Assembly (NCBI RefSeq): GCF_017348835.2
Contig: NZ_CP072315.1
Direction: 5' to 3' (one strand)
Length of the DNA stretch: 64,000 bases
DNA from: Escherichia coli
Lineage (GTDB): Bacteria > Pseudomonadota > Gammaproteobacteria > Enterobacterales > Enterobacteriaceae
Shown piece after piece: positions 21,404 through 40,939 of the stretch. The notes under the pieces were generated by a model. The model saw only the letters and a program-made list of their open reading frames with translations, did no database searches and had not been told where the DNA came from. Position numbers and translations under genes: made by a program. The first letter of the stretch is position 1; each line of letters begins with the position of its first letter.

Positions 21404-22106
21404 GGGGCACCCCCTTGCTCTTGCGCTGCCTCTCCAGCACGGCGGGCTTGAGCACCCCGCCGTCATGCCGCCTGAACCACCGATCAGCGAACGGTGCGCC
21501 ATAGTTGGCCTTGCTCACACCGAAGCGGACGAAGAACCGGCGCTGGTCGTCGTCCACACCCCATTCCTCGGCCTCGGCGCTGGTCATGCTCGACAGGTAG
21601 GACTGCCAGCGGATGTTATCGACCAGTACCGAGCTGCCCCGGCTGGCCTGCTGCTGGTCGCCTGCGCCCATCATGGCCGCGCCCTTGCTGGCATGGTGCA
21701 GGAACACGATAGAGCACCCGGTATCGGCGGCGATGGCCTCCATGCGACCGATGACCTGGGCCATGGGGCCGCTGGCGTTTTCTTCCTCGATGTGGAACCG
21801 GCGCAGCGTGTCCAGCACCATCAGGCGGCGGCCCTCGGCGGCGCGCTTGAGGCCGTCGAACCACTCCGGGGCCATGATGTTGGGCAGGCTGCCGATCAGC
21901 GGCTGGATCAGCAGGCCGTCAGCCACGGCTTGCCGTTCCTCGGCGCTGAGGTGCGCCCCAAGGGCGTGCAGGCGGTGATGAATGGCGGTGGGCGGGTCTT
22001 CGGCGGGCAGGTAGATCACCGGGCCGGTGGGCAGTTCGCCCACCTCCAGCAGATCCGGCCCGCCTGCAATCTGTGCGGCCAGTTGCAGGGCCAGCATGGA
22101 TTTACC
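21390..22106 (-). pseudogene. repA: RSF1010-type helicase gene repA, 5'-truncated by IS26
   Basis: Frame ...MLALQLAAQIAGGPDLLEVGELPTGPVIYLPAEDPPTAIHHRLHALGAHL... begins at the IS26 boundary inside the Walker A region; about the first 40 codons are missing. Confidence 0.8.
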
Positions 22107-22926
22107 GGCACTGTTGCAAAGTTAGCGATGAGGCAGCCTTTTGTCTTATTCAAAGGCCTTACATTTCAAAAACTCTGCTTACCAGGCGCATTTCGCCCAG
22201 GGGATCACCATAATAAAATGCTGAGGCCTGGCCTTTGCGTAGTGCACGCATCACCTCAATACCTTTGATGGTGGCGTAAGCCGTCTTCATGGATTTAAAT
22301 CCCAGCGTGGCGCCGATTATCCGTTTCAGTTTGCCATGATCGCATTCAATCACGTTGTTCCGGTACTTAATCTGTCGGTGTTCAACGTCAGACGGGCACC
22401 GGCCTTCGCGTTTGAGCAGAGCAAGCGCGCGACCATAGGCGGGCGCTTTATCCGTGTTGATGAATCGCGGGATCTGCCACTTCTTCACGTTGTTGAGGAT
22501 TTTACCCAGAAACCGGTATGCAGCTTTGCTGTTACGACGGGAGGAGAGATAAAAATCGACAGTGCGGCCCCGGCTGTCGACGGCCCGGTACAGATACGCC
22601 CAGCGGCCATTGACCTTCACGTAGGTTTCATCCATGTGCCACGGGCAAAGATCGGAAGGGTTACGCCAGTACCAGCGCAGCCGTTTTTCCATTTCAGGCG
22701 CATAACGCTGAACCCAGCGGTAAATCGTGGAGTGATCGACATTCACTCCGCGTTCAGCCAGCATCTCCTGCAGCTCACGGTAACTGATGCCGTATTTGCA
22801 GTACCAGCGTACGGCCCACAGAATGATGTCACGCTGAAAATGCCGGCCTTTGAATGGGTTCATGTGCAGCTCCATCAGCAAAAGGGGATGATAAGTTTAT
22901 CACCACCGACTATTTGCAACAGTGCC
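22107..22926 (-). mobile_element. tnp26: IS26 copy 3, standard Tnp26
   Basis: 820 bp with both inverted repeats; tnp26 about 22159-22863 on the minus strand; Gly184. Confidence 0.95.
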
Positions 22927-27340: not shown

Positions 27341-28160
27341 GGCACTGTTGCAAAGTTAGCGATGAGGCAGCCTTTTGTCTTATTCAAAGGCCTTACATTT
27401 CAAAAACTCTGCTTACCAGGCGCATTTCGCCCAGGGGATCACCATAATAAAATGCTGAGGCCTGGCCTTTGCGTAGTGCACGCATCACCTCAATACCTTT
27501 GATGGTGGCGTAAGCCGTCTTCATGGATTTAAATCCCAGCGTGGCGCCGATTATCCGTTTCAGTTTGCCATGATCGCATTCAATCACGTTGTTCCGGTAC
27601 TTAATCTGTCGGTGTTCAACGTCAGACGGGCACCGGCCTTCGCGTTTGAGCAGAGCAAGCGCGCGACCATAGGCGGGCGCTTTATCCGTGTTGATGAATC
27701 GCGGGATCTGCCACTTCTTCACGTTGTTGAGGATTTTACCCAGAAACCGGTATGCAGCTTTGCTGTTACGACGGGAGGAGAGATAAAAATCGACAGTGCG
27801 GCCCCGGCTGTCGACGGCCCGGTACAGATACGCCCAGCGGCCATTGACCTTCACGTAGGTTTCATCCATGTGCCACGGGCAAAGATCGGAAGGGTTACGC
27901 CAGTACCAGCGCAGCCGTTTTTCCATTTCAGGCGCATAACGCTGAACCCAGCGGTAAATCGTGGAGTGATCGACATTCACTCCGCGTTCAGCCAGCATCT
28001 CCTGCAGCTCACGGTAACTGATGCCGTATTTGCAGTACCAGCGTACGGCCCACAGAATGATGTCACGCTGAAAATGCCGGCCTTTGAATGGGTTCATGTG
28101 CAGCTCCATCAGCAAAAGGGGATGATAAGTTTATCACCACCGACTATTTGCAACAGTGCC
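27341..28160 (-). mobile_element. tnp26: IS26 copy 4, standard Tnp26
   Basis: 820 bp with both inverted repeats; tnp26 about 27393-28097 on the minus strand; Gly184. Confidence 0.95.
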
Positions 28161-32695: not shown

Positions 32696-33515
32696 GGCAC
32701 TGTTGCAAAGTTAGCGATGAGGCAGCCTTTTGTCTTATTCAAAGGCCTTACATTTCAAAAACTCTGCTTACCAGGCGCATTTCGCCCAGGGGATCACCAT
32801 AATAAAATGCTGAGGCCTGGCCTTTGCGTAGTGCACGCATCACCTCAATACCTTTGATGGTGGCGTAAGCCGTCTTCATGGATTTAAATCCCAGCGTGGC
32901 GTTGATTATCCGTTTCAGTTTGCCATGATCGCATTCAATCACGTTGTTCCGGTACTTAATCTGTCGGTGTTCAACGTCAGACGGGCACCGGCCTTCGCGT
33001 TTGAGCAGAGCAAGCGCGCGACCATAGGCGGGCGCTTTATCCGTGTTGATGAATCGTGGGATCTGCCACTTCTTCACGTTGTTGAGGATTTTACCCAGAA
33101 ACCGGTATGCAGCTTTGCTGTTACGACGGGAGGAGAGATAAAAATCGACAGTGCGGCCCCGGCTGTCGACGGCCCGGTACAGATACGCCCAGCGGCCATT
33201 GACCTTCACGTAGGTTTCATCCATGTGCCACGGGCAAAGATCGGAAGGGTTACGCCAGTACCAGCGCAGCCGTTTTTCCATTTCAGGCGCATAACGCTGA
33301 ACCCAGCGGTAAATCGTGGAGTGATCGACATTCACTCCGCGTTCAGCCAGCATCTCCTGCAGCTCACGGTAACTGATGCCGTATTTGCAGTACCAGCGTA
33401 CGGCCCACAGAATGATGTCACGCTGAAAATGCCGGCCTTTGAATGGGTTCATGTGCAGCTCCATCAGCAAAAGGGGATGATAAGTTTATCACCACCGACT
33501 ATTTGCAACAGTGCC
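32696..33515 (-). mobile_element. tnp26: IS26 copy 5, Tnp26 G184N variant
   Basis: 820 bp with both inverted repeats; tnp26 about 32748-33452 on the minus strand; reads KRIINATLGF. Confidence 0.95.
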
Positions 33516-35261: not shown

Positions 35262-36682
<1,421 letters not shown>

Positions 36683-37502
36683 GGCACTGTTGCAAAGTTA
36701 GCGATGAGGCAGCCTTTTGTCTTATTCAAAGGCCTTACATTTCAAAAACTCTGCTTACCAGGCGCATTTCGCCCAGGGGATCACCATAATAAAATGCTGA
36801 GGCCTGGCCTTTGCGTAGTGCACGCATCACCTCAATACCTTTGATGGTGGCGTAAGCCGTCTTCATGGATTTAAATCCCAGCGTGGCGTTGATTATCCGT
36901 TTCAGTTTGCCATGATCGCATTCAATCACGTTGTTCCGGTACTTAATCTGTCGGTGTTCAACGTCAGACGGGCACCGGCCTTCGCGTTTGAGCAGAGCAA
37001 GCGCGCGACCATAGGCGGGCGCTTTATCCGTGTTGATGAATCGTGGGATCTGCCACTTCTTCACGTTGTTGAGGATTTTACCCAGAAACCGGTATGCAGC
37101 TTTGCTGTTACGACGGGAGGAGAGATAAAAATCGACAGTGCGGCCCCGGCTGTCGACGGCCCGGTACAGATACGCCCAGCGGCCATTGACCTTCACGTAG
37201 GTTTCATCCATGTGCCACGGGCAAAGATCGGAAGGGTTACGCCAGTACCAGCGCAGCCGTTTTTCCATTTCAGGCGCATAACGCTGAACCCAGCGGTAAA
37301 TCGTGGAGTGATCGACATTCACTCCGCGTTCAGCCAGCATCTCCTGCAGCTCACGGTAACTGATGCCGTATTTGCAGTACCAGCGTACGGCCCACAGAAT
37401 GATGTCACGCTGAAAATGCCGGCCTTTGAATGGGTTCATGTGCAGCTCCATCAGCAAAAGGGGATGATAAGTTTATCACCACCGACTATTTGCAACAGTG
37501 CC
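36683..37502 (-). mobile_element. tnp26: IS26 copy 6, Tnp26 G184N variant; right-hand boundary of the resistance mosaic
   Basis: 820 bp with both inverted repeats; tnp26 about 36735-37439 on the minus strand; reads KRIINATLGF. Confidence 0.95.
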
Positions 37503-37646
37503 ACGCAAAGACGTAATGAGCAGTGTATCCCCTGCCACAATACCCTCTTCAGGGATGCTGTCAGTGGACGTCCAGTACTGACCCGCCAGCAAAGAATGAA
37601 ATCGCTCTAAACGGTCAATGCTATTTTTGCTGACCAGGTCACCCAT
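37503..37646 (-). pseudogene. 5' end (48 codons) of an unknown backbone gene, truncated by IS26
   Basis: ATG at 37646 preceded by AAGGA; frame MGDLVSKNSIDRLERFHSLLAGQYWTSTDSIPEEGIVAGDTLLITSLR runs into the IS26 repeat. Confidence 0.4.
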
Positions 37647-37844
37647 ATACTTTTCCTTCCAGATTCGTGTGTTAGGTGAATCATACCAGATTGCCCTTGC
37701 CGTCTAATAACGCAGAAAACTGTGAATCCAAAATTCCTTAAATTCAAACCTGTCCAATATAAAAGATGGCTCTTTTTCTTATCCAGTGTTAAGCGATAAT
37801 GCTCAATTTTATTTCATTATTGTCAGAATCAAAATAATCTGAAA

Positions 37845-37872
37845 ATAAAAAAGGCTTCAGAATTGAAGCCTC
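37845..37872 (-). terminator. candidate rho-independent terminator
   Basis: Hairpin AGGCTTCA-GAAT-TGAAGCCT followed on the minus strand by a T-run, just 3' of the 37897-38253 gene. Confidence 0.4.
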
Positions 37873-37896
37873 TATATTATACAACGTGAATGTATT

Positions 37897-38253
37897 TTAT
37901 TTATCTTTCACCGGGTTCATTTCCCAGTATCTTTCACGTACGTTTTCTTGGCAATGGTCCGCTCGCTCCGGCGTGTCCCTTTTACGAGTAGCAAATGCTT
38001 CAATTACGGCATTCAAGTCTTTTTCTTTGATTTTAGATCCAACAGGCAAGTTTTCTTCAAACTCAGTCCTTACCAGTTCTTTCGTTTTTTTATAATCGGT
38101 TTCACTTTGGATTTCAGGTTTTAAACAAATATCGGCAACCATCACATCTGATTTGCCCGGGATCGGTTTTTTCCCGTTTTCAGATGCAAGGACCGCAGAG
38201 GAGGTAAAGGCGACAGACAGAGTTGCACATAACAGAAGGTATTTTAATTTCAT
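37897..38253 (-). CDS. small secreted protein of unknown function (N-terminal signal peptide)
   Basis: 118-aa ORF with N-terminus MKLKYLLLCATLSVAFTSSAVLA. Confidence 0.5.
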   Translation of the reverse strand: MKLKYLLLCATLSVAFTSSAVLASENGKKPIPGKSDVMVADICLKPEIQSETDYKKTKELVRTEFEENLPVGSKIKEKDLNAVIEAFATRKRDTPERADHCQENVRERYWEMNPVKDK

Positions 38254-38402
38254 GACTCACTCCATGATTATCAATGATGGTTGCTCAGACACATCATTTA
38301 TACCATGCCTGTCACCGAATACGAGATCCCCATATTTTGGCTTTAAATATTATCCAATAGGGTTTCATACACCTGGCTTCTGAAAGCAAGGTTCAAGGAG
38401 CT

Positions 38403-39020
38403 TCAGGGGGAAATCAGATTGTTGTCGACCCAGTACTTGTGCAAACCTACCACCCAATTCCTGGAAATGGACGAAAGTTCATGCGCCAGTTCACGACAGC
38501 ATTCAGGCGTAAAAATACGTATGGGTCCTGAAGTACCGATATCAACAGACATGATAAACTCCAGAATGTTGCCATGGCATAGGTTGTTTCTCAGCCTGAC
38601 AATTTCTGCTTCAGGTGTTCTCCCGGCTGCTACCTTAACCAACATATCCTGCTCGGCTGGAAATGAAAGTAATTCTACCGGCACCCCTTCCTGCTTGGCC
38701 TTTCTCAGTAAGGCATTACTCATTACGGAGATACCCTCCAAGTCCACCAGCTCAGGAGCTGCATGCTGATCGTTAACTGTTGGTTTCAGCATCAGCGACT
38801 TCAACGTAACCATGAGTGATGTTTCAATCCCGTTCAGGAAGCTCGTACAGGCCGGTATCCATAGTTCGTGATGCAACGCCTCGGTTGCTTGTTTAAAGAA
38901 CCAGTCAATCACGGGGACAGTGTGATAATCATAATAGTGATTTATCTCGCTGAATCTTGACATATAAGCATCGTACTCAGCCTGGTCTTCAGGAGATAAA
39001 AAATTTGGTGGGAGGGGCAT
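38403..39020 (-). CDS. hypothetical protein
   Basis: 205-aa ORF; no recognisable motif. Confidence 0.45.
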   Translation of the reverse strand: MPLPPNFLSPEDQAEYDAYMSRFSEINHYYDYHTVPVIDWFFKQATEALHHELWIPACTSFLNGIETSLMVTLKSLMLKPTVNDQHAAPELVDLEGISVMSNALLRKAKQEGVPVELLSFPAEQDMLVKVAAGRTPEAEIVRLRNNLCHGNILEFIMSVDIGTSGPIRIFTPECCRELAHELSSISRNWVVGLHKYWVDNNLISP

Positions 39021-39174
39021 CAGAATCCTTTCATCCTAGCTTGTATACCTTCTTCGTAGGCCAGCTCGCCATTATCGGTAAAAGATGGTTTTTGGTGTTT
39101 GTGACAAAGCTTAATTTTTCGTCAGGCTCGATAGCGTTACCGGAGAGATTTGATCTTTTCTCTGTAACTCGCAA

Positions 39175-39194
39175 TACTGTTTATACATACAGTA
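39175..39194 (+). promoter_or_regulatory. LexA (SOS) box upstream of the umuD-like gene
   Basis: TACTGTTTATACATACAGTA fits the CTGT-n8-ACAG SOS-box pattern, 20 bp before the ATG at 39214. Confidence 0.7.
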
Positions 39195-39213
39195 TGAGAA
39201 TTCGAGTGTAGCT

Positions 39214-39648
39214 ATGTCTGTTATCCTTGAGCACATTAGCAACAAGCCTTACGAAATGGCACCTTTTTTCAGTGATTTACTGAGCTGTGGAGTGATGAGT
39301 CCGTGCGCCGGGCATGAAGATAATGAATTAAATTTGCATGAATATGTAGTCCGTAACCGCCCCTCAACCTTCTTTGTCAGGGCGGCGGGCCTCAGTATGA
39401 TCAATGCCGGTATCAATGATGGCGCTATTCTGGTTGTGGATCGGTCTTTAACGGCACGACACGGCTCTATCGTCGTTGCGCTGGTGGATGGAGAGTTCAC
39501 GGTAAAGATCTTACACACGTATCCTGAGCTGCTTTTGATGCCTTCTAATCCAGCCTATAAGCCGATACGTGTAAATCCCGAATCCCTTGAGATATGGGGC
39601 GTCGTCACCTTTGCACTGAATCAGTTTAGCCATGTACATGCACGTTGA
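39214..39648 (+). CDS. umuD: UmuD/MucA-like translesion-synthesis accessory protein (LexA-like S24 peptidase fold)
   Basis: 144-aa ORF immediately upstream of, and overlapping, a UmuC-like gene; preceded by an SOS box. Confidence 0.75.
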   Translation: MSVILEHISNKPYEMAPFFSDLLSCGVMSPCAGHEDNELNLHEYVVRNRPSTFFVRAAGLSMINAGINDGAILVVDRSLTARHGSIVVALVDGEFTVKILHTYPELLLMPSNPAYKPIRVNPESLEIWGVVTFALNQFSHVHAR

Positions 39649-40891
39649 TATTAACGGGGCCTATGCGGCATTTGAGTGTGCGATGGATCCCAAGCTGGCA
39701 AAAAAGCCGCTCATCATAGCCAGCAATAACGATTCGTCCGTCATTGCAATGAATAAACTGGCTAAAAGCGTTGGTATTAAGCGTGGGACCCCAATTTTTA
39801 AGTGCAGGGATTTGATTCAGCAACACCAGATCGAAGTCCGGAGCTCTAACTTTACTTTGTATGAAGACTACTCAAATCGCTTCCATGAAACGCTGGAAAG
39901 CTTCGCGCCTCAATCGAGTCGATATAGCATAGATGAAAATTTCATGTTATTGAAAAACATGAACAAGATAATAGATTATGAAGATTACGGCCGGTTGATC
40001 AGAAGTACACTTCTTCATAATCTGTCCCTTACCTGTGGTGTGGGGTGTTCAAGCACCAAAACCCTGGCTAAATTATGCACCTATGCGAGCAAACGATGGG
40101 CAGCTACAGGCGGGGTTGTAGTTTTGACTGATCAGGCCAGGATCAGGAAGCTCCTGGGCCTTATCAGTACCAGAGAAATATGGGGTATTGGTCAAAAGAT
40201 CAGTGAACGCCTGTCGGCTTTCGGGATCATCACTGCCGGTGATTTTTATAATAGCGACGTTCGCTTTTTACGTAAAAGCTTTGGCGTTGAAATCGAGCGT
40301 ACCTGGCGGGAACTGCATGGCGAACCATGTTTCCGGCTGCATGAATCCCCTCCTGTCCGGCAACAGATTATCGTTTCCAGAAGTTTTGGTCAGCGCCTTA
40401 ATGAGATAGGCAAGCTACATGAGGCAGTTTCATTTTTTACCGCCCGGGCGGCAGAGCAGCTGCGCAAGGATGGCTCGTGGACCCGTCAAATCACAGTCTT
40501 CATTCAGAGCAGCAATTATGCGCAAGGTGAAAACCGCTACAGCAATTGTGGTATCGAGCCGCTTACCGCTACACAGGACACCCGCGATCTGGTTGATGCA
40601 GCCATGACCATCCTGAACCGCATTTACAAACCCGGGATAGCGTATGCGAAAGCTGGGGTAATGCTCTCCGCTATGACTGACGGCACAGAGCAACTCAGCC
40701 TGTTTGATGAGCGCCCGGCCAGGCCTGGCAGTCAGGCACTGATGAAAGTTATGGACCGGTTCAATAAAGAAAAGCGCGGAGCTCTGTTTTTGCTGGGGGA
40801 AGGCATTCAACAGGATTTTCGTATGAAACAGGCCATGCTATCACCGAGATATACGACCCGCTGGGATGAATTACTCGTTGTAAAAGCGTAG
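39632..40891 (+). CDS. umuC: UmuC/MucB-like Y-family error-prone DNA polymerase
   Basis: 419-aa ORF; N-terminus MHVDINGAYAAFECAMDPKLAKKPLIIASNNDSSVIAMNKLAK parallels the UmuC start MFALCDVNAFYASCE...VVVLSNNDGCVIA. Confidence 0.8.
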   Translation: MYMHVDINGAYAAFECAMDPKLAKKPLIIASNNDSSVIAMNKLAKSVGIKRGTPIFKCRDLIQQHQIEVRSSNFTLYEDYSNRFHETLESFAPQSSRYSIDENFMLLKNMNKIIDYEDYGRLIRSTLLHNLSLTCGVGCSSTKTLAKLCTYASKRWAATGGVVVLTDQARIRKLLGLISTREIWGIGQKISERLSAFGIITAGDFYNSDVRFLRKSFGVEIERTWRELHGEPCFRLHESPPVRQQIIVSRSFGQRLNEIGKLHEAVSFFTARAAEQLRKDGSWTRQITVFIQSSNYAQGENRYSNCGIEPLTATQDTRDLVDAAMTILNRIYKPGIAYAKAGVMLSAMTDGTEQLSLFDERPARPGSQALMKVMDRFNKEKRGALFLLGEGIQQDFRMKQAMLSPRYTTRWDELLVVKA

Positions 40892-40926
40892 CGGCCATGA
40901 CCGGCATGGCCGTACTCATCAAAAGT

Positions 40927-40939
40927 GAAAGTAACTTTA
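40927..40939. repeat. 13-bp palindrome family AAAAGT-N-ACTTTT, copy with one mismatch
   Basis: gaaagtaacttta read directly, between convergent genes. Confidence 0.6.

Follow-up and report, generated by a model that had tools for sequence, protein, structure and literature searches.

Plasmid orthologues of DNA polymerase V, such as mucAB, impCAB and rumAB, are generally viewed as damage-inducible mutators carried on resistance plasmids. The IncN operon mucAB (R46/pKM101 type), which encodes MucA'2B or "pol RI", is plasmid-borne and preceded by a LexA box, and its two genes overlap by 13 nt. The rumAB genes of R391 (polV-R391) are described in the literature as encoding a pol V orthologue; they reside on a conjugative resistance element, and their mutator potential raises concern about how resistance may evolve (PMC8460599). 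They form a strong mutator when subcloned, whereas in the native element additional repression by SetR and CroS keeps them nearly silent (PMC8460599). Known pol V orthologues thereby span a range from strong mutators to operons that are almost silent where they naturally reside.

The genes of this kind on IncHI plasmids are named mucA and mucB in the IncHI literature (PMC4855149, PMC7366339). They were detected in 25 of 25 IncHI2 plasmids in one survey (PMC4855149), those of R27 are listed as "UV protection" genes (PMC7366339), and umuC has served to mark the boundary of the IncHI2 resistance region on maps (PMC9599605). The last of these papers also describes umuC mutations, which are in the chromosomal gene and not in the plasmid one. 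The IS26-umuD-umuC unit of PMC12240926 is found in the setting of blaNDM-5 and is distinct from the backbone operon. No LexA-binding, inducibility, UV-protection or mutagenesis assay of an IncHI1 or IncHI2 pol V was found in the literature, the coverage of which was incomplete, leaving the absence of such assays unproven.

The operon described here lies in a 64-kb stretch of DNA (the window, meaning the whole stretch that was analysed). In RefSeq, exactly these proteins carry the names umuD and umuC, and they are annotated in about 900 public plasmid records. The locus is an ordinary, already-annotated umuDC (mucAB-type) operon of the IncHI2 backbone and is not new. Since a damage-inducible mutator is the standard idea for plasmid pol V orthologues and the genes already carry annotations in hundreds of records, the operon adds no new biology. 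The only unusual feature of the locus is a rare co-varying pair of residues in the polymerase subunit, A10/F14 instead of F10/C14. The components of the operon are listed in Table 1. The span delimited by the first-pass annotation, 39175-40891, runs exactly from the first base of the LexA box to the umuC stop codon.

Table 1. Features of the umuDC-like operon and its flanks, in window coordinates
Feature	Position	Strand	Evidence
Inferred -35 hexamer TTGATC	39150..39155	+	Identical hexamer upstream of E. coli K-12 umuD; inside conserved block
Inferred -10 hexamer AATACT, 17-nt spacer	39173..39178	+	Read from sequence; overlaps left arm of box
LexA operator (SOS box) TACTGTTTATACATACAGTA	39175..39194	.	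18/20 to consensus, 6-nt palindromic arms, cross-operon alignment
umuD-like gene, self-cleaving subunit, 144 aa	39214..39648	+	Peptidase_S24, NF007621, PDB 8gmt_B
umuC-like gene, Y-family polymerase catalytic subunit, 419 aa	39632..40891	+	IMS, IMS_C, DUF4113, NF002955
GC-rich hairpin (9-bp stem, 5-nt loop), candidate terminator	40891..40913	.	Gap between umuC and dsbA-like gene

The UmuD-like and UmuC-like proteins

The product of the first gene matches Peptidase_S24 (PF00717; 2e-24) and scores 129.8 bits against NF007621, the NCBI curated model for the pol V autoproteolytic subunit, which has a cut-off of 110. Its best match in the PDB is E. coli UmuD (8gmt_B; 1.3e-31). The dipeptide C25-G26 aligns with the UmuD cleavage site C24-G25, and the invariant residues S61 and K98 align with the S60/K97 dyad of UmuD. 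The protein therefore carries the marks of the UmuD/MucA family, namely an S24 domain above cut-off, a Ser-Lys dyad and a Cys/Ala-Gly cleavage site. With respect to the last of these, the IncHI protein and UmuD have Cys-Gly, whereas MucA has Ala-Gly. The C-terminus is 5 residues longer than that of E. coli UmuD. Sequence identity is 41% to UmuD, 48% to MucA and 81% to the IncHI1B homologue.

The product of the second gene contains PF00817 (IMS; 3.9e-31), PF11799 (IMS_C; 3.2e-20) and PF13438 (DUF4113; 1.8e-17), and it reaches 464.7 bits against the curated UmuC model NF002955 (cut-off 431), with every pol IV model scoring well short of its own cut-off. In a sequence search of the PDB with this protein, the nearest solved structures were those of pol IV/Dpo4 (about 1e-16), with no UmuC-type protein coming closer. 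In an alignment of the window protein with E. coli UmuC, IncN MucB, the IncHI1B homologue and a Citrobacter plasmid homologue, the catalytic residues D6, D101 and E102, the steric gate Y11 and E15 are invariant. The same is true of Q, L, L and F in the clamp motif, which reads Q354-L-S-L-F358 in the IncHI2 protein. The UmuC/MucB domain set above cut-off, the catalytic carboxylates with Tyr11 and the beta-clamp motif QLxLF are thus all in place. Identity is 48% to E. coli UmuC, 45% to MucB and 84% to the IncHI1B homologue. An alternative start of the gene, ATG 39638, is used in some RefSeq records (as seen in record L006).

Compared to the E. coli K-12 operon (NC_000913.3), the gene order and the overlap of the two genes are alike, as are the cleavage site, the Ser/Lys dyad, D6/Y11/D101/E102 and QLxLF in the proteins. 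It had been proposed from a first reading of the DNA that a umuD-like gene overlaps a umuC-like gene. Both family assignments hold, and the two reading frames share 17 nt, compared to an overlap of 1 nt in the chromosomal E. coli operon. The IncHI genes represent a lineage separate from mucAB proper, since the identity to the A and B proteins of mucAB is only 48% and 45%, respectively. The mucAB/umuDC operon of IncHI1 (R27-type) plasmids is syntenic (HEPN-like hypothetical, umuD, umuC, dsbA-like, lipoprotein) and shares both the 17-nt overlap and the N-terminal MYMHVDINGAYAAFE with IncHI2. It differs in its operator, TACTGGTTAAATATCCAGTA, and in an otherwise diverged intergenic region.

The distribution of residues around the steric gate was assessed by searching 1.84 billion representative proteins with the UmuC-like sequence and aligning the best 150. 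Among these, D6 is present in 146 of the 146 representatives that cover the column and D101/E102 in 149 of 149, and the window protein has all three. At position 10, beside the steric gate, 134 of 146 of the same best matches have Phe and 5 of 146 have Ala, including the IncHI protein, in which Ala10 replaces the conserved Phe10 and is accompanied by Phe14, one helical turn further on. Position 14 co-varies with position 10: it is bulky (F/M/W) in all five Ala10 proteins and in none of the 134 Phe10 proteins (C in 128, A in 4, V in 2). Further rare residues in the IncHI protein are G9, A13 and N103, so that its motif reads DINGAYAAFE compared to the family consensus DCNNFYASCE, with N103 instead of A103. 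E. coli UmuC has F10/C14 and MucB has M10/C14. Membership in the UmuC family stands, because position 10 is not a defining catalytic residue.

In E. coli UmuC, the F10L substitution greatly reduces ribonucleotide incorporation and raises fidelity (PMC3493448), and the IncHI pocket may therefore behave differently. By analogy, the IncHI pol V lineage could have a rewired nucleotide-binding pocket, such that ribonucleotide incorporation, fidelity or mutation spectrum would differ from those of pol V and MucA'2B, although this is considered rather unlikely. The co-variation of A10 and F14 could equally reflect a neutral, structurally compensated swap. If the pocket were indeed rewired, a distinct mutational signature might be expected in hosts of IncHI1 and IncHI2 resistance plasmids. 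Given 45-48% identity and the rare residues G9, A10, A13, F14 and N103, activity and fidelity of the enzyme cannot be assumed equal to those of pol V or MucA'2B.

The probable LexA operator and the putative umuD promoter

The box upstream of the umuD-like gene, TACTGTTTATACATACAGTA, differs from the 20-nt E. coli LexA consensus TACTGTATATATATACAGTA at 2 positions, both in the spacer. It has no mismatch to TACTGT-N8-ACAGTA, and its 6-nt palindromic arms are perfect. With up to 3 mismatches to TACTGTATATATATACAGTA allowed, it is the only match in the whole 64-kb window, in agreement with the near-consensus LexA box reported by the first-pass annotation. That annotation had also placed the box 20 bp upstream of the umuD-like gene; the upstream placement stands, while the spacing from the end of the box to the ATG (39214) is 19 nt and not 20. 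The same 19 nt separate box and ATG in E. coli umuDC.

The surrounding promoter was assigned by comparison. The candidate -35 hexamer TTGATC, shared with E. coli umuDC, is part of ATTTGATCTTTTCTCT, a block of 16 nt that does not differ between IncHI2 and IncHI1B. Most of the 190-nt intergenic region of an IncHI1B plasmid (record L002) has diverged from that of IncHI2; the island that is retained comprises the -35 block, both box arms and the Shine-Dalgarno region. At the position of the candidate -10, IncHI1B has GATACT. In E. coli, TTGATC is followed 17 nt downstream by TACTGT, which forms the left arm of the LexA box of that operon. A consensus promoter scan did not call the umuD promoter, as its hexamers match at 8 of 12 positions and the threshold is 9; the assignment is based on the comparisons with E. 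coli and IncHI1. From the positions of the two elements, the operator overlaps the best -10 candidate (8/12 for the putative promoter), and this predicted layout matches that of E. coli umuDC.

The operator is well conserved among carriers of the operon and beyond. It is kept in about 1,100 plasmid records, and an R478-like IncHI2 plasmid has 4 substitutions in the 77-nt promoter segment and none in the box. In IncHI1B, the operator TACTGGTTAAATATCCAGTA has TACTGG..CCAGTA instead of TACTGT..ACAGTA, meaning that both half-sites have changed symmetrically (CTGT/ACAG to CTGG/CCAG) and the palindrome has been kept. The pattern TACTG-N10-CAGT is found at the equivalent position in all six aligned umuDC-type operons, with E. 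coli umuDC, IncN mucAB and two other plasmid operons among the carriers. TACTGTTTATACATACAGTA has two of the features by which members of the SOS regulon are recognized: the 16-mer core CTGT-N8-ACAG with an AT-rich spacer near the 20-nt consensus, and conservation of the operator at orthologous loci (IncHI2, IncHI1B, E. coli umuDC, IncN mucAB and the Citrobacter plasmid).

The possibility has to be considered that the palindrome is a chance match and that expression is independent of the SOS response. There are six copies of the core CTGT-N8-ACAG in the window, of which those at 42355 and 60000 have GC-rich spacers. However, significance was judged by mismatch counts together with shuffles: the full 20-mer has 2 mismatches to the consensus, and 100 dinucleotide-preserving shuffles produced no site with 3 or fewer, giving a chance expectation of 0 for such a box. 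In addition, the position over the -10, the distance to the ATG, the symmetric change in IncHI1B and the recurrence of the pattern in the aligned operons all argue against coincidence, which is very improbable. LexA control of the umuDC-like operon is, on these comparisons, very likely.

Other LexA-like boxes are present in the window. The two occurrences with GC-rich spacers are probably fortuitous. A box at 2763-2782 lies 11 nt before the start of intI1 and is of a known kind. Identical boxes at 10718-10737 and 15002-15021 precede the ISVsa3/ISCR2 transposase and are also of a known kind, as SOS control of these transposase boxes has recently been described (bioRxiv 10.1101/2025.11.21.689736).

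Predicted function of the operon

It is highly probable, from the combined sequence evidence, that the two genes form an operon repressed by LexA and encode a plasmid orthologue of DNA polymerase V. The first-pass annotation had read the locus as an SOS-regulated umuDC-like error-prone polymerase operon, and this reading is borne out by the passing of the curated models, the intact residues, the operator architecture and the symmetric conservation, which point in the same direction. LexA binding, inducibility, self-cleavage, polymerase activity and the size of the mutator effect are predictions of this interpretation.

The following mechanism is envisaged. In an undamaged cell, a host LexA dimer would sit on 39175-39194, over the -10, and block transcription. 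Upon DNA damage or exposure to SOS-inducing antibiotics, RecA-ssDNA filaments would cause LexA to cleave itself, and the operon would be transcribed. Translation of the umuC-like gene is probably coupled through the 17-nt overlap. The UmuD-like protein would then cleave itself at C25-G26 on the RecA filament by means of S61/K98, and two cleaved subunits would bind the UmuC-like Y-family polymerase. Finally, the beta clamp would recruit the complex through QLSLF, allowing low-fidelity copying past lesions. The expected outcome is that host and plasmid survive damage better, at the cost of induced mutations.

A possible reading, though on balance an unlikely one, is that the operon is genuine but weak or silent on its native plasmid, owing to extra repression by plasmid or host, rapid proteolysis or low intrinsic activity. 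Such a reading overlaps the one just given and does not exclude it. It would imply little mutation supply under antibiotics, and the selected role would be damage tolerance or plasmid establishment. The behaviour of rumAB, potent when subcloned and poorly mutagenic natively (PMC8460599), is a precedent. The promoter hexamers are weak, and in transcriptomics the R27 mucA/mucB genes were unresponsive to the temperature/HtdA circuit, data that are silent on induction (PMC7366339). Moreover, no paper with an IncHI-dependent mutator phenotype was found within the incomplete literature coverage. However, a repeat search of the 193-nt intergenic region found no further direct or inverted repeats that could serve as second operators of the SetR/CroS kind, so that, in comparison with the literature on R391, no equivalent of that additional repression is seen in IncHI2. 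The reading frames are also strictly intact in about 900 plasmids, which argues for a selected activity.

Under the preferred interpretation of a LexA-repressed pol V, it is plausible, by analogy with the plasmid operons introduced above, that the IncHI2 operon could increase the supply of mutations under antibiotic stress, as the first-pass annotation had suggested. IncHI2 plasmids play a major part in carrying mcr, blaCTX-M, blaNDM, oqxAB and floR in Salmonella, E. coli and Enterobacter. With a predicted damage-inducible, error-prone polymerase on the backbone, the mutation rate of every recipient host could rise under SOS-inducing drugs such as fluoroquinolones, including hosts that lack umuDC of their own or have only a weak one.

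Plasmid backbone and neighbouring genes

The 2.1-kb locus is found at an identity of at least 95% in 945 PLSDB plasmids, 899 of which cover at least 80% of the query. These plasmids, most of them about 210-370 kb in size, have hosts in Escherichia, Enterobacter, Salmonella and Klebsiella and are typed conjugative in 934 of the 945 cases; both carrier records that were examined (n=2) were typed IncHI2A/MOBH/MPF_F. The genes run in the order IS26, two small hypothetical genes, a 205-aa hypothetical gene, umuD, umuC, a DsbA-like gene, a lipoprotein gene, a DsbC-like gene, a lytic transglycosylase gene and TraG. Because this order is common to IncHI1B, the operon is part of the IncHI backbone. The backbone location had been claimed at the outset and is further supported by a 99.98% match of 36682-49000 to the IncHI2 plasmid pSTM6-275. 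In contrast to the chromosomal umuDC of E. coli, the operon is plasmid-borne. The left 37 kb of the window form a resistance region rich in IS26. The initial description of the plasmid as loaded with resistance genes is accurate, as floR, tet(A), aph(3'')-Ib, aph(6)-I, sul2, blaCTX-M, intI1 and six copies of IS26 are located within 1-37.5 kb.

The position of the operon within the transfer-associated backbone, beside the DsbA/DsbC-like, lytic transglycosylase and TraG genes, could suggest a different main role, namely UmuD2C-type checkpoint or SOS modulation when ssDNA enters by conjugation, with replication being slowed until the incoming plasmid is duplex. A checkpoint function and a role in cold sensitivity are ascribed to E. 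coli UmuD2C (PMC4045847), and IncHI transfer is thermosensitive (PMC7366339). The IncHI2 proteins nevertheless retain the catalytic triad, the steric gate and the clamp motif, which would be needless in a purely regulatory role, and a checkpoint as the main function is improbable.

Downstream of the operon, umuC and the dsbA-like gene are convergent and separated by a 45-nt gap that contains the hairpin of Table 1. Its predicted fold has an energy of -18.8 kcal/mol (z = -1.8), and 11 of 200 shuffles fold as well or better. There is no T-run on the + strand at the hairpin, and a terminator scan found no canonical terminator directly after umuC. The hairpin is a possible terminator on this weak evidence.

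Upstream of the operon lies the divergent 205-aa gene (38403-39020), the product of which has no match in Pfam or PADLOC. PADLOC likewise gave no match for the UmuD-like protein, the UmuC-like protein or the two upstream hypothetical proteins, and hence no link to a catalogued defence system. The 205-aa protein contains an R-x4-H motif (RLRNNLCHGN) that is invariant across 20 homologues, some of which are named MAE-28990/MAE-18760-like HEPN proteins in UniRef. This HEPN-like gene was considered as a part of the umuDC operon and rejected, because its homologues in Thiomicrospira and Pseudomonas have no umuDC nearby; it is treated as a separate unit. In these two genomes, the homologues sit among restriction-modification, TIR and caspase genes or in ICE cargo.

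Translation start and active-site residues of the UmuC-like protein

The umuC-like gene contains two in-frame ATG codons, at 39632 and 39638. RefSeq places the start at the first in the IncHI2 plasmid pSTM6-275 (419 aa) and at the second in pME-1a, also IncHI2 (417 aa). Alignment to E. coli UmuC and IncN MucB, with the Asp as residue 6, favours the first. No clear Shine-Dalgarno sequence precedes either ATG, which suggests that umuC is translationally coupled to umuD.

At residues 6–15 (39632-39680) the protein reads DINGAYAAFE, compared to the family consensus DCNNFYASCE. Ala10 is found in 5 of the 146 aligned representatives that cover this column. Position 14 is F, M or W in every Ala10 representative, and in none of the 134 Phe10 proteins. 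On this alignment, residues 10 and 14 are a co-varying pair adjoining the steric gate.

LexA-like sequences elsewhere

The box upstream of intI1 resembles the operator by which class 1 integron integrases are reported to be under SOS control. Two further boxes are identical to each other; one lies 18 nt upstream of the ISVsa3/ISCR2 transposase ORF (497 aa, 10755-12248), and the other lies within a truncated copy adjoining tet(A). SOS control of ISCR transposases has been described in a 2025 preprint (10.1101/2025.11.21.689736). Two CTGT-N8-ACAG matches with GC-rich spacers, one of them inside a lipoprotein ORF, are probably fortuitous.

Features of the window
Feature	Position	Strand	Remark
IntI1 LexA-like box GACTGTACAAAAAAACAGTC	2763-2782		ends 11 nt upstream of start codon (2793)
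ISVsa3/ISCR2 LexA-like box GACTGTATGTAAACACAGTA	10718-10737		
Same, truncated copy	15002-15021		
CTGT-N8-ACAG CTGTGCCGTCAGACAG	42355-42370		in lipoprotein ORF
CTGT-N8-ACAG CTGTTCGCCCCAACAG	60000-60015		
118-aa ORF	37897-38253	-	N-terminus signal-peptide-like
Hypothetical gene, 205 aa	38403-39020	-	divergent from umuD
UmuC-like residues 101-104	39932-39943		
IS26	4225-5044		
IS26	8186-9006		
IS26	22104-22926		
IS26	27341-28160		
IS26	32696-33515		
IS26	36682-37500		

Genes upstream of umuD and the backbone junction

The 205-aa protein has no Pfam or PADLOC match. It carries an HEPN-like R-x4-H motif (RLRNNLCHGN) that does not vary among 20 homologues. MAE-28990/MAE-18760-like HEPN is the name given to some homologues. 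In other genomes, homologues adjoin restriction-modification, TIR and caspase genes or sit in ICE cargo. The gene is kept in IncHI1 with 53% identity. The 118-aa ORF has no family match, and its position is kept in the IncHI1B plasmid with a syntenic umuDC copy. The resistance region is structured by the six IS26 copies. At the last of these it meets the IncHI2 backbone, approximately 1.7 kb ahead of the umuD promoter.
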